Source: an archaeon
GTDB lineage: Archaea; Nanobdellota; Nanobdellia; Pacearchaeales; GW2011-AR1
NCBI GenBank assembly: GCA_018653485.1
Contig: JABHZE010000006.1
Coordinates: 262,937-326,936 of the forward strand
Direction: 5' to 3'
Length of the DNA stretch: 64,000 nucleotides
The translations under genes and the position numbers were made by a program. Shown one piece after another: positions 38,859 through 54,273 of the stretch. The notes beneath the pieces are model-generated. The model saw only the letters and a program-made list of their open reading frames with translations, ran no database searches and was not told the origin of the DNA. Numbering within the stretch: the stretch's first letter is position 1; every line of letters begins with the position of its first letter.

Positions 38859-38859
38859 G

Positions 38860-39462
38860 ATGATAGATATGAAATCATCGCTTTCTTCAAATCAAATATT
38901 ACTTTTAGTTATGCCTAGTGCAGAATATAATGAGGTTCTTGTTGATGCAATGAAACAATTGTCAGGGAATATTTGCTATGTTACTTCAAATAAAACTTTT
39001 GATTCTTTAAAAGAAACTTTTAAAAAAAGTAAGGTGAATATTGATAATGTAGTTTTTATTGATTCTATTTCAAAGACTTTGAAGAAAACTCCTGACCAGG
39101 CAGATAGTGTTTATTATGTTTCTTCTCCTGGAGCATTGACTGAATTGTCTTTAGTTATTAATAAATTTTTAAGGCATGAATTTGATTATTTGATTTTTGA
39201 TTCTGTTACTAATCTTGCTGTATATCAAAAAAAGAATATGACTTCTAAGTTTATTTCTAGTTTGGCTGATAAAATTAAGAAGACTAAAACAAAAGCTATT
39301 TTTTATGCTTTGGATAGTGTTGAGCAAGCTTGGGTAATTGATCATGCTGGAATGGTTGTGGATAAGGTGATTAAGAGTGGTGGGGTGGATGGTGTTAAGG
39401 GGGAAGGGAAAGTTATTAAGAAGAGACTAAGTAAAAAAAAGAAAGAGGAGAAGGAGGTGTAA
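38860..39462 (+). CDS. KaiC/RecA-fold-like protein lacking a Walker A P-loop (paralog of 48703-49221)
   Basis: By eye it aligns with the KaiC domain of 47059-48690. QILLLVMPSAEYNEV occupies the P-loop position, GNICYVTSNK matches KKCLYMSFEE, and a Walker-B-like YLIFDSVTNL matches FIALDSLTAI. No GxxxxGK[ST] anywhere. Confidence 0.6.
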   Translation: MIDMKSSLSSNQILLLVMPSAEYNEVLVDAMKQLSGNICYVTSNKTFDSLKETFKKSKVNIDNVVFIDSISKTLKKTPDQADSVYYVSSPGALTELSLVINKFLRHEFDYLIFDSVTNLAVYQKKNMTSKFISSLADKIKKTKTKAIFYALDSVEQAWVIDHAGMVVDKVIKSGGVDGVKGEGKVIKKRLSKKKKEEKEV

Positions 39463-39463
39463 A

Positions 39464-39811
39464 ATGGCAGTAGGTCCAATGACTTTTGAAGGAGATTTGT
39501 TATTGATGGTAGCTATTGTTTTAGGATTAATTGCAACAGTTATAACTTTTTTAAATAGTCGGAAATTAAAAGGAGATGTTTTTGAAAAACCTTTTGTTTA
39601 TCTTTCAGTAGGTATTTTTTTAGCAACTTTTTCTTTAATCGCTGTAACTTTTTTTCAAGGAGTTTTTAGTGAATTAACTGTTGGTTTAATTCATGATATT
39701 AGTTTTATTCTGGGGTTAGGTTTAATGTTTTTAGCCTCTATACAGATTACAAAATTTTTAAAAGGATTAGGAAGTTTTGAACAAAAGTTACCTAAGAAGA
39801 TTAAGAAATAA
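39464..39811 (+). CDS. small 3-TM membrane protein, island family member 1
   Basis: 115 aa. TM1 is followed by FLNSRKLKGDVFEK, then two more TMs and a Lys tail. Same length and layout as 43723-44070. The start is 1 nt after the previous stop, with aaggaggt upstream. Confidence 0.55.
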   Translation: MAVGPMTFEGDLLLMVAIVLGLIATVITFLNSRKLKGDVFEKPFVYLSVGIFLATFSLIAVTFFQGVFSELTVGLIHDISFILGLGLMFLASIQITKFLKGLGSFEQKLPKKIKK

Positions 39812-39834
39812 TTTTGTTAGGGATTTTATTTTTT

Positions 39835-39860
39835 GGAGCTTTGCTCCTTTTTTATTTTTA
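39835..39860 (+). terminator. hairpin plus oligo-T terminator candidate
   Basis: ggagc-tttg-ctcc followed by ttttttattttta. Confidence 0.5.
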
Positions 39861-39945
39861 TTTTGTTGATTGATTTGTTTTTGAAATGCGAAGATATAAA
39901 TAATCAGGATTGTTATTTATAATGTGATTAAAAGGAGTAATTAAA

Positions 39946-40323
39946 ATGAAATTTGAAATGTTTTTTGCGTTTAGTATGTTTTTGTTAGGGGTAGGAGGGT
40001 TTTTCTTAGCTAGTTCTGTTTTGACAATGACTGGATTGTCGATAGCAGAGGTTGATGGGGGTGGTTCTTCGTCATCATTATTGTTGTTTATAGGTATAGG
40101 AGTAATTATTGCAGGTATTTTTGGAGTTATGATTGCAAAGAAATTTTATAAACATGATGGAGTGGATAAAAAAAGTATTAAGGGTAAGAAAGTTGGTGGT
40201 AAGGGTGGGAGAAAGGATAATAAGGTTGATAAGAAAAAGGATGAGAAGAAGGATGAGAAGAAAAAAAAGATGAAGGATAAAAAGAAGGATGATGTGAATA
40301 GTGGTAAGAAAGATAAGAAATAA
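39946..40323 (+). CDS. 2-TM membrane protein with long poly-Lys/Asp tail
   Basis: 125 aa with two hydrophobic helices, then KGKKVGGKGGRKDNKVDKKKDEKKDEKKKKMKDKKKDD. Confidence 0.5.
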   Translation: MKFEMFFAFSMFLLGVGGFFLASSVLTMTGLSIAEVDGGGSSSSLLLFIGIGVIIAGIFGVMIAKKFYKHDGVDKKSIKGKKVGGKGGRKDNKVDKKKDEKKDEKKKKMKDKKKDDVNSGKKDKK

Positions 40324-40413
40324 GGAAGCGAGAATATAAAAAGGTTTTTTTCTAATTAGATTATATAATAAATCTGTTTATTTAATAATGGATTTATATA
40401 ATAAAAAGGTTAA

Positions 40414-43400
40414 TTGAAAAAGAGGTTAATTGAAAAAGTGGTAAAACAATTGGGATTAAAGAAATTTATATTTGTAAGTGTGTTTTTGAGTTTGTTTTTA
40501 ATAAATGTTAATTTAGTATTTGCTCAAGAATCTTTGAATAAAGATTTTTTATCTCAAAAAGTATTAACTGAACTTAATTTTATTGAAGATGATTTAATAT
40601 TTTTAAAGGAGTTGCCTGATTTTAATGCTTTTATTAATGGAGATTTATCTCGTAAAGAGCATTTACAGGATACTTTTTTTAGTTTTTCAAAAAATAAACA
40701 GATTTATTATCAAGTAAGATATATTGATGAGAGTGGAAAGGAAATTATTAGGGTAGATAATATTGAAGGAGAGACTGAGATTATCTCTGAAGATAATCTT
40801 CAGAATAAAAAAGGAAGATATTATTTTGATGATGCTTTTCTTTTAGATGATGGAGATATTTTTGTTTCACCTTTGGATTTAAATATTGAACAAGGTAAAT
40901 TAGAAAATAGGGGGAGTGAAGGAAACCCTGTTTATGTTCCTGTTATAAGATATGCTACTCCTGTTTTTGATTCAGAAAAGAAAAAAGTAGGGATAATTAT
41001 TCTTAATGTTTATGCAGATTATATTTTGGATATTTTTAAGAAAAATGGTGCAGGGTTGTCTGAAGATAGGGGATATCTTGTAAATAAGGAGGGTTATTTT
41101 TTATTTCATTCTGATTCTTCAAAAGAATTTGGTTTTATGTTTGAGAATGATATTACTTTAAGAAATGAATTTGGAGGAGAGTTTAGTCGAGTTTTTGATA
41201 GTGATGAGGGTGAATTTAATTTTAATGGAAAAACTTATGATTATATTAAAATTTTTCCTTCTGATTTGGAAATAATTTCAAGTAGTGGTTCTCCTAAGAG
41301 TTATGCCCCTAGTCTATCTAAGGTTCAGGGTAAAGATTATTTTTGGATTTTAATTGTTGAATCTCCTATTGTTAAGGGTGTTGTTGATTTCATGGCTCCT
41401 GTTTTTTTAGGTATTTATATTTTTTTAGGTATTCTTATTTTTTTAGGGATTTATTTTATTTTCTTTAAGAAAAAGAAAGAAAAAGAAAAAGAGAAAGAAA
41501 AAGATATTAGTGGCTTTTTCTTTAGTAAATTAAATAGGAAGATTATTTTAGGATTTTTAATTGTTGCATTATTGTTTGGAGTTATTGCGGGAGCAGGTAG
41601 TTTTTATTTGGAAAAAGCAGCTAAATCTGATTATATTAATGCTATTAATGAGATTGAAGCAGATTTTAATGATTTTAGGGAAGGAGATATAAGGACTTTA
41701 TCGGTAGGTTTGGAAATTGCTGTTCAGGATAAGGATTTGAAGGAAGTTTATTTAGAAAAGGATAGGGATAAACTTTATAATTATGGGCAAAATTTATTCA
41801 ATGAATTAAAGGATAAGTATGCTGTTACTCATTTTTATTTTATTGAACCTGATGGGAATTGTTTTGTTAGGTTGCATAATAAGGATAAGTTTAATGATGA
41901 AATTAAAAGGGCTACTTTTTTAAAGTCTAAAGAGACAAAAGATATTGGAGCTGGAATTGAATTAGGAAAAACTGCGTTTGCATTAAGAGTTGTTAAGCCT
42001 TATTATAATGATAATGAATTAATTGGTTATATGGAATTAGGTGAAGAAATAGATCATTTTTTAGAAGAGATGAAGAAAGGTAAAAATAATGAATTTTCAA
42101 TTATTATTGATAAGGAGTTTATAGATGAAGAAAATTGGGCTTCTGTTAGGGAGGTTAAAGGATTAGAGAATAATTGGGATAAGTTAGAGAATCATGTTGC
42201 TATTGAATCTACTATTGAAAATAATGTGCATTGTTTTAATTCTGATAATGTTGTAAAGGTTTTAGATGGAGAAAGGGTTTTTGGGACTTTTGATTCTGAA
42301 AAAGGAGATTTTGTATGTGGTGGTTTTCCTTTAATTGATGCTTCTGGAAATGAAGTTGGAGCTATGTTTGCATTGATTGATTCTTCTAAGAAGATTGGTT
42401 TTATAACTGCTATAAAATATGGTTTATTGTTTATGGTTGTTCTTTTTATTTTGGCAATTATTATTCTTAGTTTTTTTATTAAATTAAAAATTATAAATCC
42501 TATTGCTAAATTGAATAATGCAACTTCTGAGATTCAAAAAAGAAATTTTAAAGCAAGGGTTGATATTAATACAGGAGATGAATTACAGGTTTTAGGAGAA
42601 TCTTTTAATAAAACTGCAAAAGTTTTGCAACATATGGATGAAGAACATAAGCAATTGGAAAAAGCTAAGACTGAATTTTTGAGTATTACTTCGCATGAAT
42701 TAAGAAGTCCGATGACTCCAATGCAAGCTCAGTTGCAAATGTTACTTGGAGAGTATTATGGAAAATTAAATCCTAAACAAAAAAATTCATTAGATATTGT
42801 TGCAAGAAATACGAAAAGATTGGATAATATTATTGTTGATTTTTTGGAGATTTCTCGTATAGAGGCTGCGAGATTAAAGTTTAGATTTGTTAAAAAAGAT
42901 TTGACTGGTTCTATTAAAAGGTTAATGAAAGAGATGGTTGGTTTTATGCCTGAGAAGAAAGTTAAGTTATATAGTAAGATTGGTAAATTGCCTGTGATTG
43001 AAGTTGATCCAGATAGAGTTATGCAGGTTTTGAGAAATTTGATTAATAATGCTATTAAGTTTTCTCCTGAAGGAAAGAAAGTTGTTGTTTCTGCAGGATT
43101 AAAAGGAAATATGATTGAGTTTTCTGTTAAAGATGAAGGTATTGGTATTAAGGCAGAAGATCAGAAGAGAATTTTTGAACCATTTTTTCAAGCAGAACAG
43201 ACTATGTATAGGGAGCATCAAGGGACTGGATTAGGATTAGCAATTATTAGAGGAATTGTTGAGTCTCAAGAAGGGAATGTTTGGTTAGAGTCTGAAGAGG
43301 GTAAGGGAACAACTTTCTTTTTTACTATTCCTTTGAAACCTGTTAGGAATGTTAAGGCAATTAAATTATTGTTTTCTGAATCTAAAAATATTGAAAAAGA

Positions 43401-43722
43401 AATTAAGAAAGTTTTCTTAGATGTTTTGGGGCCTATGGGGAGTCAAGAGTTTGAAAATTTAGAGAAAAGAAATCAATTAGATAAAAAGAATTTAATTTGG
43501 TATTCGGATTTTTTAATTAAGAAAGGTATTTTGAGTGAAGAGAAGGGGAAGTTATTTAAAGATAAATTGTTATTTATATTAGGTGAGAAAAAAAGAGGTA
43601 TTGGGACTAACGAATTAGTTAAGAAGGGGTTGATTTCATCTCCTAAGAAAAAATTGGTTGCAGAGGATATATTAAAGAAAGAGTCTAAATTAAATATCAA
43701 TAAAAAAGAAGTAAGAAAATAA
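40414..43722 (+). CDS. sensor histidine kinase with two extracytoplasmic sensor domains, HAMP, HisKA, HATPase_c and a C-terminal extension
   Basis: 1102 aa. Layout is TM, a ~290-aa Cache-like domain, TM, KKKKEKEKEKEKD loop, TM, a second ~300-aa sensor domain (THFYFIEPDGNCFVRLHNKDKFNDEI...GYMELGEEIDH), TM, then HAMP. H-box FLSITSHELRSPMTP, N-box NLINNAIKFSP, G-boxes DEGIGI and GTGLGLAI. The TTG start is uncertain. Confidence 0.9.
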   Translation: MKKRLIEKVVKQLGLKKFIFVSVFLSLFLINVNLVFAQESLNKDFLSQKVLTELNFIEDDLIFLKELPDFNAFINGDLSRKEHLQDTFFSFSKNKQIYYQVRYIDESGKEIIRVDNIEGETEIISEDNLQNKKGRYYFDDAFLLDDGDIFVSPLDLNIEQGKLENRGSEGNPVYVPVIRYATPVFDSEKKKVGIIILNVYADYILDIFKKNGAGLSEDRGYLVNKEGYFLFHSDSSKEFGFMFENDITLRNEFGGEFSRVFDSDEGEFNFNGKTYDYIKIFPSDLEIISSSGSPKSYAPSLSKVQGKDYFWILIVESPIVKGVVDFMAPVFLGIYIFLGILIFLGIYFIFFKKKKEKEKEKEKDISGFFFSKLNRKIILGFLIVALLFGVIAGAGSFYLEKAAKSDYINAINEIEADFNDFREGDIRTLSVGLEIAVQDKDLKEVYLEKDRDKLYNYGQNLFNELKDKYAVTHFYFIEPDGNCFVRLHNKDKFNDEIKRATFLKSKETKDIGAGIELGKTAFALRVVKPYYNDNELIGYMELGEEIDHFLEEMKKGKNNEFSIIIDKEFIDEENWASVREVKGLENNWDKLENHVAIESTIENNVHCFNSDNVVKVLDGERVFGTFDSEKGDFVCGGFPLIDASGNEVGAMFALIDSSKKIGFITAIKYGLLFMVVLFILAIIILSFFIKLKIINPIAKLNNATSEIQKRNFKARVDINTGDELQVLGESFNKTAKVLQHMDEEHKQLEKAKTEFLSITSHELRSPMTPMQAQLQMLLGEYYGKLNPKQKNSLDIVARNTKRLDNIIVDFLEISRIEAARLKFRFVKKDLTGSIKRLMKEMVGFMPEKKVKLYSKIGKLPVIEVDPDRVMQVLRNLINNAIKFSPEGKKVVVSAGLKGNMIEFSVKDEGIGIKAEDQKRIFEPFFQAEQTMYREHQGTGLGLAIIRGIVESQEGNVWLESEEGKGTTFFFTIPLKPVRNVKAIKLLFSESKNIEKEIKKVFLDVLGPMGSQEFENLEKRNQLDKKNLIWYSDFLIKKGILSEEKGKLFKDKLLFILGEKKRGIGTNELVKKGLISSPKKKLVAEDILKKESKLNINKKEVRK

Positions 43723-44070
43723 ATGGTTAATATAATAACAATAAATTGGATAATTGGAGGAGTTGCAGGAATTTTAATGTTCTATGCTTCTTTTATTACA
43801 TTTATGGCTGCAAAAAAAATGACAGGAGAATTAAAGAAATCTATTTTATTATTACTTGGCGCTTTATTATTTTATTTATTTATGGGATTTGGAATAGGAA
43901 TAATGGCTGTTAAAGATATTCATTATAGTGAGAGAGTTTGGTTGATTATTTCAACTTTTTCTTTAATAGGGGGAATTTTATTTGTAGTCGGTGCTAGAAA
44001 ATTGTTTAAGGTTTTGTTAAATGTTTCTGAAAATGATAAAAAGATAAATAAAAAGGAGGTTAAAAAATGA
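43723..44070 (+). CDS. small 3-TM membrane protein, island family member 2
   Basis: 115 aa. The start is immediately adjacent to the HK stop. TM1 is followed by FMAAKKMTGELKKS, then two more TMs and a Lys tail. Confidence 0.55.
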   Translation: MVNIITINWIIGGVAGILMFYASFITFMAAKKMTGELKKSILLLLGALLFYLFMGFGIGIMAVKDIHYSERVWLIISTFSLIGGILFVVGARKLFKVLLNVSENDKKINKKEVKK

Positions 44071-44492
44071 AGAAAAATATTTTGGTGTTAGTAATGTTAG
44101 GATTAATGTTTGCTATGCCTTTTATTAGTGCTGCTACAGAACATAGTGATAATAGTATTGGAATTGCTTCTCACTGGATATCTATGGTATTAATTGTTGT
44201 TGTAATTGTTTTTGCTTTTATGGCTGCGGGAATGTTTGCTGAAGGTTTAGGAAAGGCAATGAAATTAATTGGAGTCGGAATGGCTTTTCTTGGTATAAAT
44301 AGTGTTATGGAAGAATTTGCCCATATGGAGTTTCTTATTATTCCAGAAGGAGTTTTACACTCTTTGACATATCATGGTTTAGTGGCTGTTGCTTATATTT
44401 TCCTTGCATATGGATTTTATAGGGTTTACAAAGTAGCTAAAGGTGTTTCAGGAAATTCTGTTGGTAAATCTGTTCAAAAGGGGGCTAAGTAA
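44067..44492 (+). CDS. small membrane protein (signal peptide + 3 TM), island family member 3
   Basis: ATGA overlap with the previous gene. FMAAGMFAEGLGKAMKL mirrors the post-TM1 motif of 43723-44070. Confidence 0.55.
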   Translation: MKKNILVLVMLGLMFAMPFISAATEHSDNSIGIASHWISMVLIVVVIVFAFMAAGMFAEGLGKAMKLIGVGMAFLGINSVMEEFAHMEFLIIPEGVLHSLTYHGLVAVAYIFLAYGFYRVYKVAKGVSGNSVGKSVQKGAK

Positions 44493-44508
44493 TTAATTAC
44501 TAAATAAA

Positions 44509-44685
44509 ATGAAAGAGAAAATTGTAACAATTGGAACTTTGCTAGAGAAGGGTTTAATTAAAGAAAGTACTAAAATTAGAATTAGTATTGAAAATCTAAA
44601 AGAGATTGATTTGATTAAACCTCTTGATAAGAAAAAAGTTGTTAAGATAACTGAGCTTGATGAAATGGGGTTGATAAAAAAATAA
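44509..44685 (+). CDS. candidate 58-aa protein with SHOCT-like G-L-I-K motifs
   Basis: Below the ORF-track cutoff. Encodes MKEKIVTIGTLLEKGLIKESTKIRISIENLKEIDLIKPLDKKKVVKITELDEMGLIKK. The same (E/K)KG(L/I)(I/L) motif occurs twice in the HK C-terminal extension. Confidence 0.35.
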   Translation: MKEKIVTIGTLLEKGLIKESTKIRISIENLKEIDLIKPLDKKKVVKITELDEMGLIKK

Positions 44686-44744
44686 TTTAAAATGAAAATT
44701 AAAAAATTTTCAAATTCTCATTTAAGGAGGTTAAATTTCGGAAA

Positions 44745-46409
44745 ATGAAAATAGCATTTATCTTAATTATCTCATTTGTAATTGTAGCAGTACTTGGTAG
44801 TATTGGTGGAAGTTATTATTTTTATTTGGAATCTGGAGATTTATTAGAGCATCAGGTTATAAATCATTTAGATTCTGTTGCACAAGGAATGGAAAACTCT
44901 ATTAATGGTTTTTTAGAAGAGCAAATTGATAAGTTGAATATCGTTGCAACACATGGAGAACTTTCAGTTGAAGAATTAATTGAGATAAGGGATTTGCAGG
45001 ATGAATTTTATGAGGTTTTTGTTTTAGATTCTAAGGGGATTATTATTGCAAGTTCGGATGTTTCAAAAATTGGTTTAGATAGGGCTGAGGATGATTATTT
45101 TATTGGAGGAATAAAAGGAGATCATATTAAAACAGCTTATTTTTCAGATATAACTTTTATAGAATCAATTGCGGTTTCTACTCCTTATAATGGAGGAGTT
45201 TTAGTTGCAAGAATTGAATTAGAAGCATTTAATAAATTAATTTCGGATAGGACTGGATTAGGTGAAACAGGAGAGAGTTTATTAGGTTATAAGGGTGATG
45301 ATGGAGAAGCTGTTTTTTTTACTGAGTTGAAATTTGAGGTAGGTCCTGATGGACATGAAGCAGAACATGTAACCTTACCTATAGAGGAAGCATTAGATGG
45401 GAAGGAAGAAATATTTTTTGAATATGATTATCGTCATGTGCCTGTAATTGCTGCAACAAGATATATTGAGGATGTAGATATGGGGCTTGTTACTAAAATT
45501 GATGAAGCAGAGGCATTAGGTATTGCTAGGAATAGATTATTTAGAACTTCTTTGATTGTGATAATTATAATTACTTTGATTATTACTTTAGTTGGTTTTT
45601 TTGTTTCGCGTTTAATTTCAAAACCTATTAAGAAATTAACACAAGATGTTGACGAAATAACAAAAGGTAAATTAGATCTTCAATTAGGTAAGAGTAATCT
45701 TTTTGAAATTCAAGGATTAGTTAATTCATTGAATCGGATTTTAGCTTCATTAAAGCTGGCTATTTTGAAAACAGGTTCTGCAAAGGGATCGTTAGGTTTA
45801 GGGGAGGTTGTTAAGGCTAAACAAGAGGCTGAAGAGAAATATAAGATTCTTTATGAAACTTCACAGGATGCAATTATGATATTAGAGCCTCCTAAATGGA
45901 ATTTTACTGCGGGAAATCCTGCAACTGTTAAAATGTTTGGTGCTAAGGATGAGAAAGATTTTATTTCCTATGGTCCTGGAAAATTATCTCCTAAAAATCA
46001 GTTGAATGGGAAATTATCTTCTGAAGAAGCTAAGAAAATGATTGGTATTGCTATGAAAAAAGGAAGTTATTCTTTTTATTGGACTCATAAAAAAATTAAT
46101 GGTAAAAGTTTTTATGCAAGTGTTTTGTTAACTAAGATGAAATTAAATGGTAAAGATGTTTTACAAGCAACTGTTCGGGATTTATCAGGGAAGAAAGGAG
46201 AGGGGGAGAAACAAGTTCTTGCCAAGAAATCTGAAGGTAAGGTTGTTAATAAATTGGTTAAGAGTGTTAAGAAAGATATGGTTAGTGGAAATAAAAAAAA
46301 TAAAGAAGAGGTGAAGAAAAAAAATATTAAAAAGGAATTAGTTCCTCCAAGTCCTGTTTCTAAGTCTGTTATTAAAAAAAATGTTGATAAGGAAGAGGTG
46401 AAAAAATAA
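44745..46409 (+). CDS. membrane sensor: Cache-like domain + HAMP + PAS, no recognisable output domain
   Basis: 554 aa. Layout is TM, a ~250-aa extracytoplasmic domain, TM, HAMP (ISKPIKKLTQDVDEITKGKLDLQL...LVNSLNRILASLK), then PAS (YKILYETSQDAIMILEP...LQATVRDLSGKK). It ends in a Lys-rich tail with no HisKA, HATPase, GGDEF or MCP signalling domain. Confidence 0.8.
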   Translation: MKIAFILIISFVIVAVLGSIGGSYYFYLESGDLLEHQVINHLDSVAQGMENSINGFLEEQIDKLNIVATHGELSVEELIEIRDLQDEFYEVFVLDSKGIIIASSDVSKIGLDRAEDDYFIGGIKGDHIKTAYFSDITFIESIAVSTPYNGGVLVARIELEAFNKLISDRTGLGETGESLLGYKGDDGEAVFFTELKFEVGPDGHEAEHVTLPIEEALDGKEEIFFEYDYRHVPVIAATRYIEDVDMGLVTKIDEAEALGIARNRLFRTSLIVIIIITLIITLVGFFVSRLISKPIKKLTQDVDEITKGKLDLQLGKSNLFEIQGLVNSLNRILASLKLAILKTGSAKGSLGLGEVVKAKQEAEEKYKILYETSQDAIMILEPPKWNFTAGNPATVKMFGAKDEKDFISYGPGKLSPKNQLNGKLSSEEAKKMIGIAMKKGSYSFYWTHKKINGKSFYASVLLTKMKLNGKDVLQATVRDLSGKKGEGEKQVLAKKSEGKVVNKLVKSVKKDMVSGNKKNKEEVKKKNIKKELVPPSPVSKSVIKKNVDKEEVKK

Positions 46410-46810
46410 TGGTATTTATGGAATGGAGTGATGAATTAAGTGTCAAAGTTAAAGAAATTGATGAACAACATAAAGAGTTGATTGAGATTATCAATCAAGC
46501 TCATAAGATTAATATGGGAGAGGATAAGAAAAAAGGAAATGAGATTTTAAATAAATTAATTGAATTTACTCGAGTGCATTTTACTACTGAAGAAAAATAC
46601 TTTAAAAAATGTAAATATCCTAAGAGTGAAGAACATATTGTAGAACATGTTGAATTAATTGAAAAAGTTTTGAAATTTAAAAGAGATTATGAAATTGGGA
46701 AGTGTAATTGTGAAGAGTTTTTAGGGTTTCTTAAGGATTGGTTGGAAAATCATTTGAAAGTTATGGATATGAAGTATGTTGATAATTTTCAAAAATGTGG
46801 GTTGAAGTAA
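46409..46810 (+). CDS. bacteriohemerythrin-like protein
   Basis: MEWSDELSVKVKEIDEQHKELIEIIN...HFTTEEKYF...EEHIVEH...WLENHLKVMDMKY contains all the His/Glu/Asp di-iron ligand positions. Its ATG overlaps the upstream stop (TAATG). Confidence 0.85.
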   Translation: MVFMEWSDELSVKVKEIDEQHKELIEIINQAHKINMGEDKKKGNEILNKLIEFTRVHFTTEEKYFKKCKYPKSEEHIVEHVELIEKVLKFKRDYEIGKCNCEEFLGFLKDWLENHLKVMDMKYVDNFQKCGLK

Positions 46811-46895
46811 TGTTTTGATTTGGGTTTTTGATAAGACATGTTTGAGAAGGGAGTTAGTTAAAAAATAGGTTCGCTATGCTCACACTTATTTTATG

Positions 46896-46927
46896 GAAAA
46901 TTGAATGACTTTGTTAATTCAATTTTC
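46896..46927 (+). promoter_or_regulatory. perfect 11-bp inverted repeat between the hemerythrin and hemerythrin-KaiC genes
   Basis: gaaaattgaat-N10-attcaattttc. It could be a terminator hairpin or an operator. Confidence 0.4.
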
Positions 46928-47058
46928 TAATTCTTCTAATAAATCTATAAATTTTTTATTTAAGTTATAGAGAAAGAATTGTTATTATTGGGTAGAGCTG
47001 TATTTTGTTTTTTTGTGAGGCATAAGATAGATTTAAATAATATTTTTTTCTTATTTTA

Positions 47059-48690
47059 ATGGGTGATGATTATATGGTTAGAAAAAAGAAAGTGAAAAGA
47101 AAAAAGAGTGTAGAAAAGAAGAAGGATACTAAGAAGGAGAAGGCTGAGAAGAAGAAGGTTGAGGAGAAGGCTGAGAAGAAGGTTGAGAGGAAGGCTGAGA
47201 AGGAGAAAGTGGATAAGAGAAAAAAGAATGTGAAGAAAAAGAAGAATTCTAAGGAAAAGGTTGAGAGGGTTGGAAAAGTTGATGAAGTAAGAAAAGTTGA
47301 AAATAATTCTAAGAAAAAAGATTCTAAAGAAATAGTTAGTTGGAGTTCTGCATTAAGTGTTGGTGAGAAAACAATTGATAGTCAACATAAGAAATTGATT
47401 GGGCAGATTGAAGAGTTAGAAAAGAATTTGAAGGAAGATAATTCTCTGCCTGGAGTTAGGAAGTGTATTCATTTTTTAGATAGTTATGTTAAGGAACATT
47501 TTACCTATGAAGAAGCTTATATGAAAAAAAATAAATATTCGGGTTTAGAAGAACATAAGAGAATTCATAATGAATTTATTAAATTTTATGAGGAGTTTAA
47601 AAAAGAATTAACTCTAAAGCTGACTAAGGTTGTAGATGCAAAATCTTTTGCAAAAGAACATGTGAAAAAGGTTCACGAGTTTTTAGGTAATTGGATTATT
47701 GAACATATTAAAGGAGAGGATAAGAAATATTGTGAAGAGATTAACCCTAAAAAATGTGGTAAATTGGATAAAGAGGTTATTAAAAATAAAGATGTTGCTG
47801 AAAAGCCAATAAAAGAAAAGAAAAAAGGTAAAATAGATGTTTCTGAGATTGCTAAAGAAATTAAGGAAGAACAAATTAAAGAACAGAGAGAACCTGTTAG
47901 TGACTTGGCTAATGAGGGGAAGGATAAGAAAATAAAAAAAGGTTCTGGAAGATATGTTGTTACTGGTGTGCCTGGGTTTGATGATTTATTAGAACAAGGA
48001 ATTCCTAAAGGAAATGCTCTTTTAATTGCATGTGGTGCTGGAAGTGGAAAGACTATTTTTAGTTTGCAATCTCTTGTGCATCAGGCTAAAAAGGGTAAGA
48101 AATGTTTGTATATGAGTTTTGAAGAAAGAGAGAGTAGGTTGATTTCTCATATGGAAGATTTTGGATGGAATCCTAAAGAGTTAATTGAGAAAGGAAATTT
48201 AAAAATTATGAGGATAAATCCTTTTGATATTACGAGAAATGTTGATGCCTTATTGGCTAAACAAAAGGGAGAATTATTAATTGAGATAGACCCTGTGATT
48301 ATTCCTAAGGATTTTAAGCCTGATTTTATTGCTCTTGATAGTTTAACTGCTATTGCTAGTGCTTTTACTGGGAAAGAAGAAAATTATAGAATTTATATTG
48401 AACAATTATTTAGATTTTTTGAAAAAATTGGGGCTACAAGTTTTTTGATTACAGAGACTGAACAAATACCTAAGATATTTAGTAAGACTGGTGTTGAAGA
48501 GTTTTTAGCAGATGGTGTAATTGTGTTTTATAATTTAAAGCATGGAAATGTTAGAGAGAATGCTATTGAGATTTTGAAACTAAGAGGGGCTGCACATCAG
48601 AAAAAAATTGTTGCAATGCAGATTACTGGTAAGGGAATAATGGTTTATCCTGAACAGGAAGTTTTTTCAGAGATTTCTGAGAGTGGGTGA
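47059..48690 (+). CDS. Lys-rich repeat + bacteriohemerythrin domain + KaiC-like (RecA-superfamily) ATPase fusion protein
   Basis: 543 aa. About 90 aa of KKKVEEKAEKK-type repeats come first. Then hemerythrin (WSSALSVGEKTIDSQHKKLI...EHFTYEEAYM...EEHKRIHNEF...WIIEHIKGEDKKY). Then KaiC-like GVPGFDDLLEQGIPKGNALLIACGAGSGKT (Walker A), FIALDSLTAI (Walker B) and ILKLRGAAH. Confidence 0.85.
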   Translation: MGDDYMVRKKKVKRKKSVEKKKDTKKEKAEKKKVEEKAEKKVERKAEKEKVDKRKKNVKKKKNSKEKVERVGKVDEVRKVENNSKKKDSKEIVSWSSALSVGEKTIDSQHKKLIGQIEELEKNLKEDNSLPGVRKCIHFLDSYVKEHFTYEEAYMKKNKYSGLEEHKRIHNEFIKFYEEFKKELTLKLTKVVDAKSFAKEHVKKVHEFLGNWIIEHIKGEDKKYCEEINPKKCGKLDKEVIKNKDVAEKPIKEKKKGKIDVSEIAKEIKEEQIKEQREPVSDLANEGKDKKIKKGSGRYVVTGVPGFDDLLEQGIPKGNALLIACGAGSGKTIFSLQSLVHQAKKGKKCLYMSFEERESRLISHMEDFGWNPKELIEKGNLKIMRINPFDITRNVDALLAKQKGELLIEIDPVIIPKDFKPDFIALDSLTAIASAFTGKEENYRIYIEQLFRFFEKIGATSFLITETEQIPKIFSKTGVEEFLADGVIVFYNLKHGNVRENAIEILKLRGAAHQKKIVAMQITGKGIMVYPEQEVFSEISESG

Positions 48691-48702
48691 TAGGGGGTTA
48701 AA

Positions 48703-49221
48703 ATGAAACATAAACTTGTATTTTTATTAGGGCATGAGGGTTATCTTAAAGAAATAAGAGAAATTATTAAAAAAAAGGGAAGTAAGATTTGTTATATAAC
48801 TTTGAATAAGAGTTGTGAGTATTTGAATGGGAAATTAAATGTTAGTAATTTTGATGAGGATAAATTTTATTTTATTGATGGTGTTTCTCCTATAATTAAA
48901 AAGCCTGGAGATGTTGGAAATTGTGATTTTGTCAAAATGTCTGATGGTTTTACTAAATTAATCGGTTATGTTAAAAAGGGTTTGAAAAATGGGGCAAATG
49001 TAGTTGTTTTAGATTCTGTATCTAATGTTTTGACATATCATTCTTCTACAAAAGGAACTTGTTCTTTTATAGATAGACTTTCAAAACTTGTTGAAAAACA
49101 TAATGCTACTTTAGTTGTTTTTTGTAATAAGAATGATGAAGAGAGAATTGCTAATGGGGTTTGCATTTCTAATTTTAAGGTTTATAAGAAACCTTTTGAG
49201 TTATTGGGGCATAGGGAATAA
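48703..49221 (+). CDS. KaiC/RecA-fold-like protein lacking a Walker A P-loop (paralog of 38860-39462)
   Basis: LVFLLGHEGYLKE sits at the P-loop position, KICYITLNK follows, and NVVVLDSVSNVL is Walker-B-like. Starts 12 nt after the hemerythrin-KaiC gene, with a gggggt SD-like motif. Confidence 0.6.
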   Translation: MKHKLVFLLGHEGYLKEIREIIKKKGSKICYITLNKSCEYLNGKLNVSNFDEDKFYFIDGVSPIIKKPGDVGNCDFVKMSDGFTKLIGYVKKGLKNGANVVVLDSVSNVLTYHSSTKGTCSFIDRLSKLVEKHNATLVVFCNKNDEERIANGVCISNFKVYKKPFELLGHRE

Positions 49222-49295
49222 GGGTTTTGTTGAGTAATGTGGAGTAGATTTTAGGATTGTTTTTTATTAATTATTATCTAGAATATAGTGATATC

Positions 49296-49355
49296 TTTCT
49301 GTATTTCTATGGAAGTATAAAGAAGTATATAGAATTCTACAGAAATGTTTAAAAA
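49296..49355 (+). promoter_or_regulatory. operator-like repeats plus shared promoter core upstream of the RHH gene at 49396
   Basis: Inverted repeat tttctgta (49296-49303) / tacagaaa (49338-49345) brackets two gaagtata direct repeats spaced 10 nt apart (49312-49319, 49322-49329). agaaatgtttaaaaa (49341-49355) is identical to the core of 37458-37488. Confidence 0.45.
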
Positions 49356-49395
49356 GGAAAATTACTTAGAATAATTGTAGCTTGGAGTTTAAAAA

Positions 49396-49542
49396 ATGCA
49401 AAAAAAGGTGACCTTAAGTATCGACGATGAAGTCTATGGAAATTTTCAAAAATTTTGTGAAGAGAATGATGTAATGCTTTCTAAGAGAGTTGAAAGATTG
49501 ATTAAAAAACATTTAGAGGAGGGTGAGAAAAATGATAAATGA
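49396..49542 (+). CDS. ribbon-helix-helix (CopG-like) protein, 48 aa
   Basis: Below the ORF-track cutoff. MQKKVTLSIDDEVYGNFQKFCEENDVMLSKRVERLIKKHLEEGEKNDK has the classic RHH beta-strand (VTLSID) plus two helices. It overlaps the next ORF's start. Confidence 0.5.
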   Translation: MQKKVTLSIDDEVYGNFQKFCEENDVMLSKRVERLIKKHLEEGEKNDK

Positions 49543-50185
49543 AATTTATCAAAATGTATTGTATTTTTTAGAATTAAGTTTTGATAAAAATGTTTTATGG
49601 ATAGTTTTTCCTTTGTTGATTGCAACAATAATTATGTTATTTTATTTTGAAAAATATAAGGATGAAAAACCTGGATGGAATACTCATGTTTCAAATTCAC
49701 TTGTTTTGTTATTTGTTGCTATGATTTTATTTAGACAGATTTATAATATTGATGGGTTGGGAATGATTAATTTTGTTGAGAATATAAGTAAATTTGTTGT
49801 ATCTTTAGTTATATTGTTGATAGGAATTATAATTTTGTTTTTGAATTTTGAACATTTTCTTCCTGAAAAAATAGCAAGATATGTGAGTTCTCCTTTAACA
49901 TTAAATTTAATTGCTTATGTTGTAATTCTTTATGTTTTTTCTGAGATACAAGATGGTTGGGGAATTTTTATTTCTCTTTTAATTATATTTGCTTTATTAA
50001 TTGTGATTTTAAATTTAATAAGAATTCCTTTGAGGAATTTATTTGAGTATATTAAGAAGATGAAAGAAAAAGAAAAAGTAGAGGAGATAAAAGGAGAGAA
50101 AAAACCAATTCATGAGAAGAAAAAAATGATTAAGAAAGAAGAGGTTTTGATTAGAAAAGAGAAGAAAGAAAAGGAAAAAAAGTAG
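49532..50185 (+). CDS. multi-pass membrane protein with Lys/Glu-rich tail
   Basis: About 217 aa from the ATG at 49532 (a GTG at 49523 is also possible). Five or six hydrophobic helices, then KKMKEKEKVEEIKGEKKP...KEKKEKEKK. Confidence 0.55.
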   Translation: MINEIYQNVLYFLELSFDKNVLWIVFPLLIATIIMLFYFEKYKDEKPGWNTHVSNSLVLLFVAMILFRQIYNIDGLGMINFVENISKFVVSLVILLIGIIILFLNFEHFLPEKIARYVSSPLTLNLIAYVVILYVFSEIQDGWGIFISLLIIFALLIVILNLIRIPLRNLFEYIKKMKEKEKVEEIKGEKKPIHEKKKMIKKEEVLIRKEKKEKEKK

Positions 50186-50276
50186 AAAAAAAGGTAAGAA
50201 AAAGAAATAGGTAAGCCAATATATTAAAAATAATTAATCTTACGGCAATGGGCTTTGTGTTAGCTTGTCCTTAGGG

Positions 50277-50519
50277 TTAATTGCTTGGATACTGCCCCTG
50301 TTTGCAGATATTACAACAATTCTGATTATTACTATTAGATTTATTAATATCATTTACAAATTCTTTTTCGCAACTACTACCCAACATTTCTTCAACAACC
50401 TCTTTTTCAACATCTTCATAGCCTACAAAATTTATACCGCAAATTCTACATTTTAACATTTTTAATTCTGAAAAAGTTATGTCTGAAACTTCGCCAAATT
50501 CAACAACTAAATCTTTCAT
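50277..50519 (-). CDS. small zinc-ribbon protein coupled to the integrase
   Basis: 80 aa with CRICG...CCNIC. Its start overlaps the integrase stop (ATGA). Confidence 0.5.
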   Translation of the reverse strand: MKDLVVEFGEVSDITFSELKMLKCRICGINFVGYEDVEKEVVEEMLGSSCEKEFVNDINKSNSNNQNCCNICKQGQYPSN

Positions 50520-51562
50520 TTTACAATCTCCATTTCTTTACTATAATCTTTTCTAATAAAATTGTCTTGAAGATTTAATAATACATCTTTATAATTATCA
50601 TTCATTAATGCGATTTCTTTTTTAAGATTTTCAATTTCTAATTCCATTTTGTTTTTTTCTGGTTCGGTTAATTCTTGAGTTGGAAAAAAATCTTTTAACA
50701 TACTTTCTTCAACATCATCGTCATCTAAATTATTATAAAATTGGGATGCCTTAGAATTATGCCCGGCGAATTTACAACTTAATTTTTCAGGCAAAGTTTT
50801 CTGAATATCGTATAATCGTGTATGCCGTAGTAAGTAAGGGAATATGTGCCTTATTTTAGCCTTTTCTGAAAGCCTTTTAAACATTTGAGTTATTACTCCG
50901 TCCCCCATAGGTTTTTCTTTATCGTGTTGAGAAGGGAAAACATAATCGTTATAGCCCCTATTCGCAAAACTATATTCATCTTTCCATCTCTTTAAATGAA
51001 GAATGCAATCTCTTACCGGAATATATCTTTCTTTTTGAGTTTTAGGCGAAACAATATGAATTCTACAAATATTTTTATTTTCATCAAAATTCAAGTCTTT
51101 CCATTTCAATATTCTAATTTCGCAAGGACGCAAAGCCCCTTCATACATTAAAGAAATTAAGGCTTTCCATTTTAGGTTATTCGCAATTCTAATCAAAGCT
51201 TCAAGTTCTTCGGGTTTTAGTAAGGTATTTTTATTTATTTTATCTTTATTTCTTAGTAAATCATCTGAAACAAGTCTAAAAGCTTCTTTAAGCCTCAAAT
51301 CTTCTAAATCTATTTTATTTTTATATTGTATTTTTAAAAATCTTTTAAAGATTTTCTTAGTGTCATTTTTAGTATGCAAAGAATAATCAGAATTATTTAG
51401 GTAGGCTAAATATTTTATAATGTCTGTAATAGTTAATTTTGTTAAATCTTTTTTTAGAAACTTCTTAATATTCTTTAAAGTGTTCTTAATTTTATAAATT
51501 CTTCTTTCTCCGCAAGTCGTAGAGCAGAACTCGTAAAATTCATTAAGCTGTTTTTTTTCCAT
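50516..51562 (-). CDS. tyrosine recombinase/integrase (XerC/D-phage integrase family)
   Basis: 348 aa. N-terminal SAM-like domain, then the catalytic pattern LMYEGALRPCEI (Arg), HIFPYLLRHTRLYD (His-x-x-Arg) and AGHNSKASQFY (His...Tyr). The gene faces the 3' end of tRNA-Glu 58 nt away. Confidence 0.85.
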   Translation of the reverse strand: MEKKQLNEFYEFCSTTCGERRIYKIKNTLKNIKKFLKKDLTKLTITDIIKYLAYLNNSDYSLHTKNDTKKIFKRFLKIQYKNKIDLEDLRLKEAFRLVSDDLLRNKDKINKNTLLKPEELEALIRIANNLKWKALISLMYEGALRPCEIRILKWKDLNFDENKNICRIHIVSPKTQKERYIPVRDCILHLKRWKDEYSFANRGYNDYVFPSQHDKEKPMGDGVITQMFKRLSEKAKIRHIFPYLLRHTRLYDIQKTLPEKLSCKFAGHNSKASQFYNNLDDDDVEESMLKDFFPTQELTEPEKNKMELEIENLKKEIALMNDNYKDVLLNLQDNFIRKDYSKEMEIVK

Positions 51563-51619
51563 AAATTTCTGTTAATTTAAGGATTTTTAAAGGTTTAGGG
51601 CTTTTTTATCTTTCGTAAA

Positions 51620-51692
51620 TGCCCCGACCGGGATTCGAACCCGGGTCACGGCCTTGAAAGGGCCGGATGCTTGGCCGCTGCACTATCGGGGC
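51620..51692 (-). tRNA. tRNA-Glu(UUC)
   Basis: Reverse complement gccccga-ta-gtgc-agcggccaa-gcat-c-cggcc-ctTTCaa-ggccg-tgac-ccggg-ttcgaat-cccgg-tcggggc-a. Confidence 0.9.
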
Positions 51693-51777
51693 CTATTAAT
51701 TATTAGAATTAATAACTAATATAAAATTTAAAGATAAATTTGGTTTTTAAAGTTGTTGGTTTGTTGGATGAAGAGAT

Positions 51778-52125
51778 TTAAAGGTCTATTTTTTCAGCCC
51801 AATAACTTACTATTGGGATGTTCTTTTTCTCTCCTGAAAGTGCATATATCCAGGATAATAACCATATTATAAAAATTAAGATTTTAAGTGCAAAGGAAAT
51901 TAATCCTCCCATTAATGAGATCCAGAAAATAAATTTTAAAATTATTCCTGAGATGGTGCCTATGACGAATATAACTAAAGATTGTTTTGCATAAAACATT
52001 ACATATTTGTTTTTTGGTTTTACAATTAAGGCTATTACAAATCCTATTATACTTAGGAAAGTTGCTAAGAATGCAAATACTATTTTGTCATTGTTTTGGT
52101 TTGATTTTTTATTTGTTTTTGCCAT
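51778..52125 (-). CDS. small 3-TM membrane protein (DUF4870-like)
   Basis: 115 aa. FAFLATFLSIIGFVIALIV...YAKQSLVIFVI resembles DUF4870-type proteins. Confidence 0.5.
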   Translation of the reverse strand: MAKTNKKSNQNNDKIVFAFLATFLSIIGFVIALIVKPKNKYVMFYAKQSLVIFVIGTISGIILKFIFWISLMGGLISFALKILIFIIWLLSWIYALSGEKKNIPIVSYWAEKIDL

Positions 52126-52369
52126 TTTGTGATTCTGCTATTAGTTTAATTCCAGTTACAATCCCCCATATCCAGGCTGTGAAGATAAGGACAATTCCTA
52201 GGAATATTAATATTAAGGGAATACCTATTATAAATAATACTATTTGCCAGATTCCTTCTTTTGGTTTTTTACCAATTATTGAACCTATTCCAGGGAGTAT
52301 TAAATTTATTAGTAATACTATAATTGCTATTGTTAATGTTGGTTTGGTTTGAGGTTTTTGTTTAGGCAT
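52109..52369 (-). CDS. small 2-3-TM membrane protein
   Basis: 86 aa with LPGIGSIIGKKPKEGIWQIVLFIIG. It overlaps the downstream ORF by 17 nt. Confidence 0.45.
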   Translation of the reverse strand: MPKQKPQTKPTLTIAIIVLLINLILPGIGSIIGKKPKEGIWQIVLFIIGIPLILIFLGIVLIFTAWIWGIVTGIKLIAESQNGKNK

Positions 52370-52565
52370 TTTGATGGTCTCTTAATTATTTGGAAGGTTA
52401 TGTTAATTAGAGGCTGTTTTGGTTTATAAGTTTTTTTGGAAGTATTGATAATTGATAAATTTTTTAGGTTGAGAGATATAATGAATCATACTTAGAGATT
52501 TGAATAAATTTTATATGAAAAAAGATTATAATAATCTATAAAAAGTATGTTTTGTTTAATTATTT

Positions 52566-52886
52566 ATGGAAAAAATTTCTGTTGAAGAAGCAATTGAAAG
52601 ATTTTTACCTGAAGAGGTTGTTGATGATTTAAGGAAGAGGTTTAGAATAGGACAGGATAGTCAAACAACAGAGAGAAAACTCGGATTAGCTCTTGAGATG
52701 TTTTGTTATGAAGATGAATTTTCAAAAACAGATGAAGGGAGTGAATGGTATCATGAAAATTATGGGATGGATTTAGGACTTATAAGTTTAGAAGCTCATG
52801 AAGTTGCATTGAGGTATGTGGAGTCAAGACAAGAGGGAGTTAGAAGAACTTGTTCAAAATTAAGAAGGTTGCGTTTTACTGGTTGA
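52566..52886 (+). CDS. hypothetical acidic protein
   Basis: 106-aa ORF. No family recognised. Confidence 0.45.
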   Translation: MEKISVEEAIERFLPEEVVDDLRKRFRIGQDSQTTERKLGLALEMFCYEDEFSKTDEGSEWYHENYGMDLGLISLEAHEVALRYVESRQEGVRRTCSKLRRLRFTG

Positions 52887-52967
52887 TTTTGCTTTTCTTG
52901 ATTGGTTTGAGATACATTAAAAAACTTTAAAAGCATGTTATTTGTTGATTTATTGTATTAAACATAC

Positions 52968-53042
52968 GAGCCTATAGCTCAGTCAGGTCAGAGCACTGCT
53001 CTTATAAGGCAGGGGTCCCAAGTTCAAATCTTGGTAGGCTCA
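52968..53042 (+). tRNA. tRNA-Ile(UAU)
   Basis: gagccta-ta-gctc-agtcaggtca-gagc-a-ctgct-ctTATaa-ggcag-gggtc-ccaag-ttcaaat-cttgg-taggctc-a. All four stems pair, with one G-U. Confidence 0.85.
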
Positions 53043-53091
53043 TTTAAGGAAGATAAATTAATCTGATAGGATTTATGGAGAATAATGTAAA

Positions 53092-54273
53092 ATGTTAATT
53101 GGTTTGGTTGGTAAGCCTAGTTCGGGAAAAAGTACGTTCTTTAAAGCTGCGACTCTGGCAGATGTTTTAATTGCAGCTTATCCTTTTGCAACTATTAAGC
53201 CTAATCAGGGCGTGGGTTATGTTCGTGTTGAGTGTATTGATAAGGAATTTAATGCTCAATGTAATCCTTCAAAAGGTTATTGTGTGAAAGGAACTAGGTT
53301 TGTTCCAATTGATTTATTGGATGTTGCAGGATTAGTTGAAGGAGCTTCAGAGGGGAAAGGATTGGGTAATCAATTTTTAGATAATTTAACTTCTGCAGAT
53401 GCTTTTATTCATATTGTAGATGTTAGTGGAGAGACTGATGCTGAAGGAAAAGAAACAAAAGGGTATAATCCTGTAAAAGATATTGATATGTTAGAGAATG
53501 AATTAGATTTGTGGTATCTTGGAATTTTAAAAAAAGTTTGGAAAACTTTTTCAAAAAGTATACAAAATACAAAAGGAGAGTTTGCAAAGTCTGTTGCAAT
53601 TCAATTTTCTGGATTAAAAGTTAGTGAAGATGATATTAGGGAAGTTATTTTAAAAGATAAATTTGATATTGAAAAACCTTCTGAATGGGATGATGATGAA
53701 TTAAAAAGATTTTCTCATGAATTAAGACATTTAACTAAACCAATGATTATTGCAGCTAATAAAATTGATAAAGAAACTTCAAAAGAAAATTTAGAAAAAT
53801 TAAAAGAAGCTTACCCTGAATTAATGATTGTTCCATGTTCTGCGGATTCAGAGTTAGCATTAAGAGAAGCAAATAAGGCTGGATTAATTGATTATCTTCC
53901 AGGTTCTAAAAGTTTTAAAATTAAAGGAGATATTAATGAAAAACAGAAAAGTGCTTTAGAGAATATTCAGAAAAATGTTTTAGAGGTTTATGGAAGTACT
54001 GGTGTGCAAGATATCTTAGATAAAGTTATTTTTGATTTATTGAAATATATTGGAGTCTTTCCTGCTTCGGCAAATAAGTTAGCAGATAGTAAGGGGAATA
54101 TTTTACCTGATTGTTTTTTAATTAAAGATGGAAGCACTGCTTTAGATTTTGCATTTGCTATACATAGTGATTTAGGGAATAATTTTATTAGAGCAATTAA
54201 TGCAAGAACTAAACAAGCTGTTGGTAAGGAGCATAAGTTGAAGCATAGGGATGGGTTGGAAATAATCACTTAA
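53092..54273 (+). CDS. YchF/OLA1-like P-loop GTPase/ATPase with C-terminal TGS domain
   Basis: LIGLVGKPSSGKSTFF (G1), DVAGLVEGAS (G3), ANKID (G4), and a TGS-like C-terminus ending LKHRDGLEII. Confidence 0.85.
   Translation: MLIGLVGKPSSGKSTFFKAATLADVLIAAYPFATIKPNQGVGYVRVECIDKEFNAQCNPSKGYCVKGTRFVPIDLLDVAGLVEGASEGKGLGNQFLDNLTSADAFIHIVDVSGETDAEGKETKGYNPVKDIDMLENELDLWYLGILKKVWKTFSKSIQNTKGEFAKSVAIQFSGLKVSEDDIREVILKDKFDIEKPSEWDDDELKRFSHELRHLTKPMIIAANKIDKETSKENLEKLKEAYPELMIVPCSADSELALREANKAGLIDYLPGSKSFKIKGDINEKQKSALENIQKNVLEVYGSTGVQDILDKVIFDLLKYIGVFPASANKLADSKGNILPDCFLIKDGSTALDFAFAIHSDLGNNFIRAINARTKQAVGKEHKLKHRDGLEIIT

Follow-up and report, generated by a model that had tools for sequence, protein, structure and literature searches.

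The locus

We analysed a window of 64,000 nucleotides (nt; the whole stretch of DNA presented above) from a marine DPANN-type archaeon, and our subject is a 172-residue protein encoded at its positions 48703–49221, referred to here as the target. It lies directly downstream of a gene for a hemerythrin–KaiC protein and has a paralog at 38860–39462; both paralogs belong to one syntenic island of about 12 kb (37531–49221), in which they are 10 kb apart. An earlier note, made from the letters alone, had read the target as a second P-loop-less KaiC-like protein, and both open reading frames (ORFs) were found at exactly the positions that it gave. The features on which the argument depends are the following.

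47059–48690, + strand: upstream partner, with a Lys-rich N-terminus, a hemerythrin domain (about residues 93–230) and a KaiC-like ATPase domain (about residues 300–533)
48688–48702, + strand: KaiC/target junction, a TGA TAG double stop followed by GGGGG (48693–48697, Shine–Dalgarno-like) 5 nt before the target ATG
48703–49221, + strand: target, a stand-alone inactivated KaiC-like (iKaiC) protein of 172 residues, ATG to TAA
49222–49395, + strand: AT-rich intergenic region with T-runs, e.g., T6 at 49260–49265; likely end of the transcription unit, the terminator function being a reading of the letters
38860–39462, + strand: paralog iKaiC1, 200 residues, a member of Pfam DUF7090, beginning 2 nt past the stop of the upstream receiver (REC) gene

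The upstream protein matches hemerythrin (PF01814, 49 bits) and KaiC (PF06745, 172 bits). In its KaiC domain, the P-loop is intact (GAGSGKT), the catalytic glutamates stand in FEERE, Walker B reads ALDS and KLRG is also there, so that "active-looking", as it had been called before, is a fair description by its motifs. In the window, the KaiC stop and the target ATG are 12 nt apart, a gap that implies co-transcription of the two genes; in relatives, the junction is a gap of 1 nt (locus L001) or 16 nt (the contig of P0274 and P0126), or an overlap of 4 nt (L137). Downstream of the target, an AT-rich spacer of about 175 nt precedes the next gene, a separate 48-residue ORF. Given the double stop and GGGGG on one side and the T-runs and AT-rich spacer on the other, the KaiC transcription unit probably ends with the target.

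The KaiC and target ORFs share a reading frame in the window, parted only by TGA TAG and three codons, a layout that we judge coincidental. Read-through or a recent fission was considered as its explanation and rejected, because there are two consecutive stops and a Shine–Dalgarno-like motif, and because the frame relation is not kept in L001.

KaiC homology and loss of ATPase features

The target and its paralog are significantly similar by BLASTP (E = 2e-11, 27% identity across 123 residues). The three motifs that had been quoted as their family features are present in both proteins: KICYITLNK (residues 28–36), FYFIDGVS (55–62) and VVLDSVSNVL (101–110) in the target, with NICYVTSNK, VVFIDSIS and LIFDSVTNLA as counterparts. 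A small slip in the first, given as (I/K)ICY, is corrected to (K/N)ICY. In target numbering, Y31, T33, N35, K36, F57, D59, D104 and S105 are invariant or nearly so across the family, and these are the same columns as those of the quoted motifs.

Four agreeing tests (Pfam, family profile, predicted fold and profile–profile comparison) show that the target is KaiC-like. The Pfam KaiC model (PF06745) matches it with E 5.4e-6 along profile positions 45–182 of 231 only, and at 26.4 bits the match misses the gathering cut-off of 26.6; a newer precomputed version lists a weak match. The family profile finds FlaH (PDB 4yds) as its best PDB sequence–profile match, locally, in the Walker B region (E 0.0024). 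From an alignment of 71 relatives, AlphaFold2 gave a model (pLDDT 82.6, pTM 0.83) that was compared with known structures by Foldseek; the top match was the KaiC-like ATPase PH0284 (PDB 2dr3; E 1e-6, TMq 0.69), and dozens of KaiC CI chains came next. Finally, hhalign of the 150-sequence family against a diverse KaiC-like set is significant (Prob 95.2%, E 2.8e-8), as is that of the target subgroup against the same set (Prob 93.2%, E 3e-7). Significance depends on the diverse set: against an alignment of close KaiC orthologues only (Neff 2.2), the match is weak (E 0.007, Prob 5%). With plain BLASTP, the target and the upstream KaiC protein do not match (best E 4.0), and homology is thus detectable only through profiles or structure. 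Since the paralogs are alike at E = 2e-11 and the profile match to KaiC is significant, the lack of similarity to each other or to KaiC that the earlier note had named as fatal to its proposal is not what was found. A phmmer search of the target alone against PDB sequences returned only weak matches, such as the DddA deaminase (E 0.05), which we dismissed as spurious.

What the target keeps of the KaiC domain, and what it has lost, can be read from the hhalign register. Strand beta1 is retained and followed by a 6-residue deletion at the P-loop, with GHEGY standing against GAGSGKTIFSLQ; the catalytic Glu-Glu of KaiC is Asn35-Lys36; and the Walker B Asp104-Ser105 is retained. The protein ends after beta6, so that the KLRG arginine-finger segment and beta7–beta9 are absent; relative to KaiC, about 25 N-terminal and about 45 C-terminal residues are missing. 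GK[ST] occurs nowhere in the target and at the P-loop position in 0 of the 274 family proteins examined, in line with the earlier description of the paralogs as P-loop-less. None of the functional elements expected of a PF06745-type protein (Walker A, catalytic glutamates, Arg finger) is present. By its residues, the target cannot act as an ATPase, because the P-loop carries a deletion, Glu-Glu has become Asn-Lys and the Arg-finger region is missing.

Ten residues are invariant across KaiC-coupled, iKaiC-then-REC and REC-then-iKaiC members of the family. The polar invariant residues Y14, T33, N35, K36, D59, D104 and S105 are placed by the model at the C-terminal ends of beta1 to beta4, the predicted position of the former nucleotide site. 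In RecA-type rings, this site faces the Arg finger of the neighbouring subunit.

Family assignment

Galperin et al. 2018 (PMC5847659) describe an "iKaiC, inactivated KaiC-like ATPase domain", including DUF835 and MEDS, among the output domains of response regulators, and refer to Makarova, Galperin & Koonin 2017 (mBio 8:e01959-17). Galperin et al. also list the response regulators iKaiC-REC, REC-DUF835 and MEDS-REC, MEDS being an iKaiC-type sensory domain (PMC5847659). The target has the marks of this already described class and belongs to it: KaiC/RecA-like homology and fold, disrupted ATPase motifs (Walker A, catalytic Glu), and an operonic tie to REC, histidine kinase (HK) or KaiC, in its case a position after KaiC within an island of REC, HK, Cache and hemerythrin genes.

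Assignment to a narrower known family gave a different result. The paralog scores 35.3 bits against DUF7090 (PF23365, cut-off 27 bits) and is a member, whereas the target scores 15.1 bits; the target also remains below the cut-offs of DUF835 (PF05763, 13.4 against 33.1 bits) and DUF7504 (PF24336, 11.9 against 27 bits), and its three sub-threshold matches overlap one another. Among the 20 members of the target subgroup, weak matches were seen to KaiC in nine and to DUF835 in four, none matches DUF7090 at E <= 0.01, and one member weakly matches Pfam ELP6 (E 4.7e-4). The circadian KaiC model (NCBIfam NF006799 / TIGR02655) describes a double domain with an equivalog cut-off of 408 bits, while the target gives 14 bits (E 0.014) over one truncated domain. 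Nor is the target an ArlH/FlaH protein: it has no match to NCBIfam ArlH (cut-off 215 bits), and no archaellum genes lie nearby in the window.

The subgroup of the target evolves fast and is caught at threshold by no Pfam model. The family of the paralog comprises at least 228 clusters with 55–72% identity from Pace-, Woese- and Nanoarchaeota and some other archaea, carrying DUF7090 and DUF7504. A word-indexed search with the target returned only itself and two orthologues, and an exhaustive HMMER search reached 563 representative clusters at E <= 1e-3, of which only about 13 lie above 90 bits. The target descends from the REC-associated iKaiC family, in the neighbourhood of DUF7090, DUF7504 and DUF835. 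Y-x-x-S-S-P-G-A-L-T-E is nearly invariant in the DPANN DUF7090 group (target-numbered columns 75–85) and lost in the target lineage of the window; the P-x-x-L motif, which in the REC-coupled group belongs to SSPGALTE, is likewise lost in the window sub-lineage. Residues specific to the target clade relative to its relatives are K4, E39, Y40, C120, V139, F140 and C154. We also considered a C-terminal F-x-x-Y-x-x-x-F-x-P-x-G as a marker of KaiC coupling and rejected it as not diagnostic, because only some clade members carry it and it also occurs in the outsiders P0130, P0135, P0143 and P0167.

A subclade coupled to KaiC

We defined a KaiC-coupled iKaiC subclade by position, the gene lying at most 16 nt after or overlapping a conserved DPANN KaiC orthologue, and by grouping with the window protein, P0002, P0003, P0124 and P0126; the target shows both. 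Its orthologue in L001 (65% identical) follows KaiC after a 1-nt gap, and that in L135 (82% identical) has a KaiC C-terminus directly upstream. The more distant P0126 (36% identical) lies 16 nt after the KaiC orthologue P0274, and P0124 (39% identical) overlaps the KaiC stop by 4 nt. The partner KaiC domains in these loci are 78–89% identical to that of the window, and matches to this KaiC number 2,947 at E <= 1e-10. By neighbour joining over 150 family members, the five KaiC-adjacent proteins are the exact content of their common-ancestor clade, which excludes all REC-adjacent members in 89 of 100 bootstraps (32-taxon subset). Members of this subclade always directly follow a highly conserved single-domain KaiC-like ATPase. 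In one DPANN subclade, the gene for a protein of dead KaiC fold and REC-associated ancestry has become fixed directly after that of a conserved KaiC ATPase. That a fast-evolving iKaiC subclade dedicated to a KaiC ATPase exists, missed by Pfam at threshold, is new, if modestly so.

The target is under purifying selection (dN/dS 0.21–0.40) and evolves several-fold faster than KaiC (0.09).

Two observations concern individual members and loci. In L135 (110–643), an in-frame TAG close to the C-terminus counts as a residue in the database entry for P0002 but ends the translation of the contig; the read-through probably arose as an artefact of gene calling, the contig being of low coverage. In L137 (1888–2815), the island is otherwise syntenic, but an inserted NTP_transf_2 nucleotidyltransferase gene and a 133-residue gene, resembling a toxin–antitoxin pair, separate its hemerythrin and KaiC genes.

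Genomic context across the family

With the subgroup profile we collected 40 genome loci and 80 metagenome loci, annotated their neighbours with HMMs (hidden Markov models) built from the window's own domains, and counted contexts over about 150 non-redundant iKaiC genes. A REC gene lies directly upstream of about 79 of them, 26 of these in the order REC, iKaiC, HK, and directly downstream of 17. At two loci, REC and iKaiC are fused (L045, 5527–6486; L057, 1264–2028). A true KaiC ATPase is a direct neighbour in few cases only (the window clade, L092, L032 and L081) and lies within the flanks of 12 of the 51 loci of at least 8 kb. Two iKaiC genes may also share a locus, as in L012 (iKaiC, REC, iKaiC, HK) and in L027 and L034 (REC1, iKaiC, REC2, iKaiC), and P0142 is a tandem iKaiC–iKaiC protein of 339 residues.

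REC is the family-wide partner, and KaiC coupling is a lineage-specific derivation. The REC-then-iKaiC order dominates in the family and proved to be very widespread in metagenomes and genomes, and the very wide conservation of a REC, iKaiC, HK module in DPANN and other archaea is a further modest novelty. The fusions and the tight REC-then-iKaiC pairs show that iKaiC domains work as modules for protein partners in signalling. It had been proposed that the pseudo-ATPase pairs once with REC and once with KaiC. Both pairings do recur elsewhere, that with REC widely and that with KaiC in a monophyletic subclade; the two seen in the window are not independent modules but parts of one island.

The signalling island

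The island runs in the order REC1, hemerythrin, REC2, iKaiC1, two membrane proteins, HK, two membrane proteins, a 58-residue ORF, dCache-HAMP-PAS, hemerythrin, hemerythrin–KaiC and target, and the same order is found in the DPANN genomes L001, L009, L132 and L044. Its remaining features are these.

37531–37884, + strand: REC1, single-domain receiver with no adjacent iKaiC; candidate alternative partner of the target
37963–38403, + strand: stand-alone hemerythrin-domain protein between REC1 and REC2
38505–38858, + strand: REC2, single-domain receiver directly upstream of iKaiC1
40414–43722, + strand: membrane sensor HK of 1102 residues; Cache-type sensor, HAMP, HisKA and HATPase in orthologues
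44745–46409, + strand: dCache-HAMP-PAS sensor that has no kinase domain and a conserved place ahead of the hemerythrin and KaiC genes
46409–46810, + strand: stand-alone hemerythrin, directly preceding the KaiC gene in every orthologous locus

Three hemerythrin domains are present in an island whose order is shared by several DPANN genomes, and this suggests a system responsive to O2, iron or redox state. The fusion of hemerythrin to the KaiC gene is not tied to the iKaiC and is variable among orthologues: KaiC proteins 75–89% identical in the ATPase domain have swapped N-terminal extensions, with hemerythrin, a winged-helix/helix–turn–helix domain or almost nothing in that place (P0278, P0293, P0296, P0357, P0277). 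The window KaiC gene starts with about 90 Lys-rich low-complexity residues, and its true start codon may therefore lie further in.

Beyond the island, at 49396–50185, the 48-residue ORF (DUF6364 sub-threshold, 24.9 bits) runs into the 5' end of the gene for a membrane protein of about 217 residues, and this pair is kept right after the island in L001-, L136- and L009-type loci. At 50516–51692, a minus-strand tyrosine recombinase (PF00589, 69 bits) abuts a tRNA-Glu(UUC), as in an integrated element; no att-like direct repeat for this region was found in 49200–53200. Relatives carry a giant Big_13-like protein (about 2,000–2,300 residues) at the integrase position, which the window does not have. 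A tRNA-Ile at 52968–53042 has the anticodon UAU, which is an uncommon means of reading AUA.

Function of the target

We hypothesize that the target is a non-catalytic binding partner, a regulatory or adaptor subunit, of the KaiC ATPase encoded with it, a reading to which we give a probability of about 0.5. The adaptor role that had been suggested for this P-loop-less KaiC-like paralog is plausible. Both proteins would be made from one transcript with coupled translation, and the target would serve the ATPase as a stoichiometric, non-catalytic partner with a regulatory or adaptor role. The invariant polar residues at the former nucleotide site make it a natural candidate for a docking or phosphate-sensing surface, and docking would probably take place through this face (Y14, T33, N35, K36, D59, D104, S105). 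Since the C-terminal Arg-finger segment is absent, KaiC would be engaged on one side only, which favours capping or peripheral binding over a closed mixed hexamer: the target may cap or flank the KaiC oligomer, or bind as a heterodimer, rather than take its place as a regular subunit. In this way, it could link the state of the ATPase to the two-component (REC/HK) branch of the island. A switch of partners would agree with the clade-specific residues and with the loss of P-x-x-L/SSPGALTE in the window sub-lineage.

Several observations weigh against a dedicated KaiC partner. The bulk of the family pairs with REC and not with KaiC, and REC could still be the physical partner; the nearest relatives of the target outside its clade are all first genes of iKaiC-then-REC pairs (L011, L012, L013, L050, L056, L058, L062). 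Fast evolution of the target beside a nearly frozen KaiC is unlike what is expected of a tightly co-evolving interface. The gene is dispensable, as the island exists without it at the close KaiC orthologues P0277 and P0278 and at the L009 locus. The neighbour-joining tree rests on short, divergent sequences, and the locus is on no contig of three metatranscriptomes of the same study, only DNA runs containing it. In the three loci without the target (P0277, P0278, L009), KaiC is followed by a small ORF and then by a giant surface protein; downstream of the KaiC orthologue P0280 lie a PAS kinase gene, a REC gene and a weak iKaiC-like gene.

The strongest rival, conceivable though on balance unlikely, is that the target acts, as its family does elsewhere, as partner or output module of a single-domain receiver, the orphan REC1 (37531–37884) or REC2, and that its adjacency to KaiC reflects co-regulation only. 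REC adjoins most genes of the family (about 79 of 150 upstream and 17 downstream), fusions exist, the closest relatives outside the clade are all iKaiC-then-REC pairs, and the island has two RECs for its two iKaiCs, with L027 and L034 showing both in alternation. The KaiC-adjacent members, however, form their own clade with tight or overlapping KaiC junctions in five lineages, that clade has positions of its own, and P-x-x-L is lost in the window sub-lineage. Islands without the target (L009, L132) still carry REC1, which hence does not need it. A closer association with KaiC, in which the target takes a true subunit position in hexameric rings mixed from KaiC and iKaiC and, being dead, tunes or poisons the ATPase, strikes us as quite improbable. 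RecA-like subunits with degenerate ATPase motifs do form hetero-hexamers in Elongator Elp456, and one subgroup member weakly matches Pfam ELP6; the core fold is predicted to be shared with KaiC, onto whose domain the family stacks in a MAFFT alignment, and translation would be coupled. Against this, the target covers KaiC profile positions 45–182 of 231 only and has neither the Arg finger nor beta7–beta9. Because about 25 N-terminal and about 45 C-terminal residues (with KLRG) are missing, at most one of the two ring interfaces would be available, and loci of close KaiC orthologues exist without the gene. A closed mixed hexamer, as the earlier note had envisaged, is thus unlikely and would be structurally disfavoured.

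The polar pocket could instead bind a small ligand or phosphate, the target being a sensor, a role proposed for the iKaiC-type MEDS domain, that relays a metabolite or nucleotide-derived signal to KaiC or REC. We see a slim chance of this: ten residues of the former nucleotide site are invariant in three context classes though catalysis is impossible, and MEDS is given as an iKaiC-type sensory domain in PMC5847659; yet the P-loop deletion makes canonical nucleotide binding unlikely, Pfam searches of the target and its subgroup gave no match to MEDS or any ligand-binding family, and the conserved face could equally be a protein interface. That the target is merely a decaying, functionless duplicate of the island's DUF7090 gene is scarcely credible. 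Identity of 36–39% within the clade, compared with 78–89% for the neighbouring KaiC, and patchy presence would fit decay, but the ORFs are intact in five lineages, dN/dS is 0.21–0.40, family-invariant residues are kept and the KaiC junction is tight and conserved, so that this explanation is largely refuted.

The non-catalytic KaiC partner could also be one instance of something broader, which we put forward as a speculation with rather low odds. The iKaiC proteins would be general dead-ATPase adaptors that physically wire REC signalling to KaiC-type oligomers in archaea. On this view, the two paralogs, one coupled to REC and the other to KaiC, would be specialised as the two ends of one relay in the island (hemerythrin/Cache sensing, HK, REC, iKaiC1, iKaiC2, KaiC), and the invariant pocket a shared docking or phospho-sensing site.

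Significance and comparison with known systems

A role as central hubs of signalling has been put forward for archaeal KaiC-like ATPases, whose ties to two-component systems are largely untested. If true, the general-adaptor proposal would give a concrete, testable mechanism for such a "KaiC hub". The locus reveals no new kind of system. It is a compact natural pair of a very conserved, active-looking KaiC and a putative dedicated partner of dead KaiC fold, set in an island with a REC-coupled paralog, an HK and three hemerythrin domains, and therefore a convenient place to ask what iKaiC proteins bind, how they affect KaiC ATPase activity and what the invariant pocket does. The fusions in L045 and L057 and the tandem protein P0142 are useful "Rosetta stone" evidence and ready-made constructs for structure prediction. 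For annotation, a "hypothetical protein" becomes a member of a defined subfamily, a fast-evolving branch that the DUF7090, DUF7504 and DUF835 models miss.

The closest described counterpart is the iKaiC class. The target resembles that class, as described in PMC5847659, in its KaiC/RecA-like fold with ruined ATPase motifs, in its two-component and KaiC neighbourhoods, and in the REC fusion or adjacency of its relatives; it differs in being a stand-alone protein of 172 residues and not a REC-fused output domain, and in belonging to a clade coupled to an active KaiC. With DUF7090, DUF7504 and DUF835 it shares the CYxTxNK, FxD and DSxxN motifs, although it falls below all three cut-offs and is without the SSPGALTE of the DPANN DUF7090 group. 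PH0284 (2dr3), ArlH/FlaH (4yds) and the cyanobacterial KaiC CI domain are its best structural or profile matches, but these proteins have Walker A, catalytic glutamates and the Arg finger and form hexamers, whereas the target, shorter by about 65 residues, lacks all of these motifs.

Elongator Elp4/5/6 and Psy3-Csm2, the Rad51 paralogs of the yeast Shu complex, have a RecA fold with degenerate ATPase motifs and serve as structural partners. They offer a possible model, by analogy, of a RecA-like core without ATPase motifs that acts as an assembly or regulatory partner of active relatives; homology is demonstrated only at the superfamily level, and they work in another domain of life and in another process. 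In cyanobacteria, the output of KaiC passes through the histidine kinases SasA and CikA, the receiver protein RpaA and the pseudo-receiver of KaiA. The wiring proposed here would be analogous in that a KaiC-type ATPase is tied to histidine kinases and receivers through small adaptors, but the island is without KaiA or KaiB homologues, its KaiC is single-domain, and the proposed adaptor is itself a dead KaiC domain.

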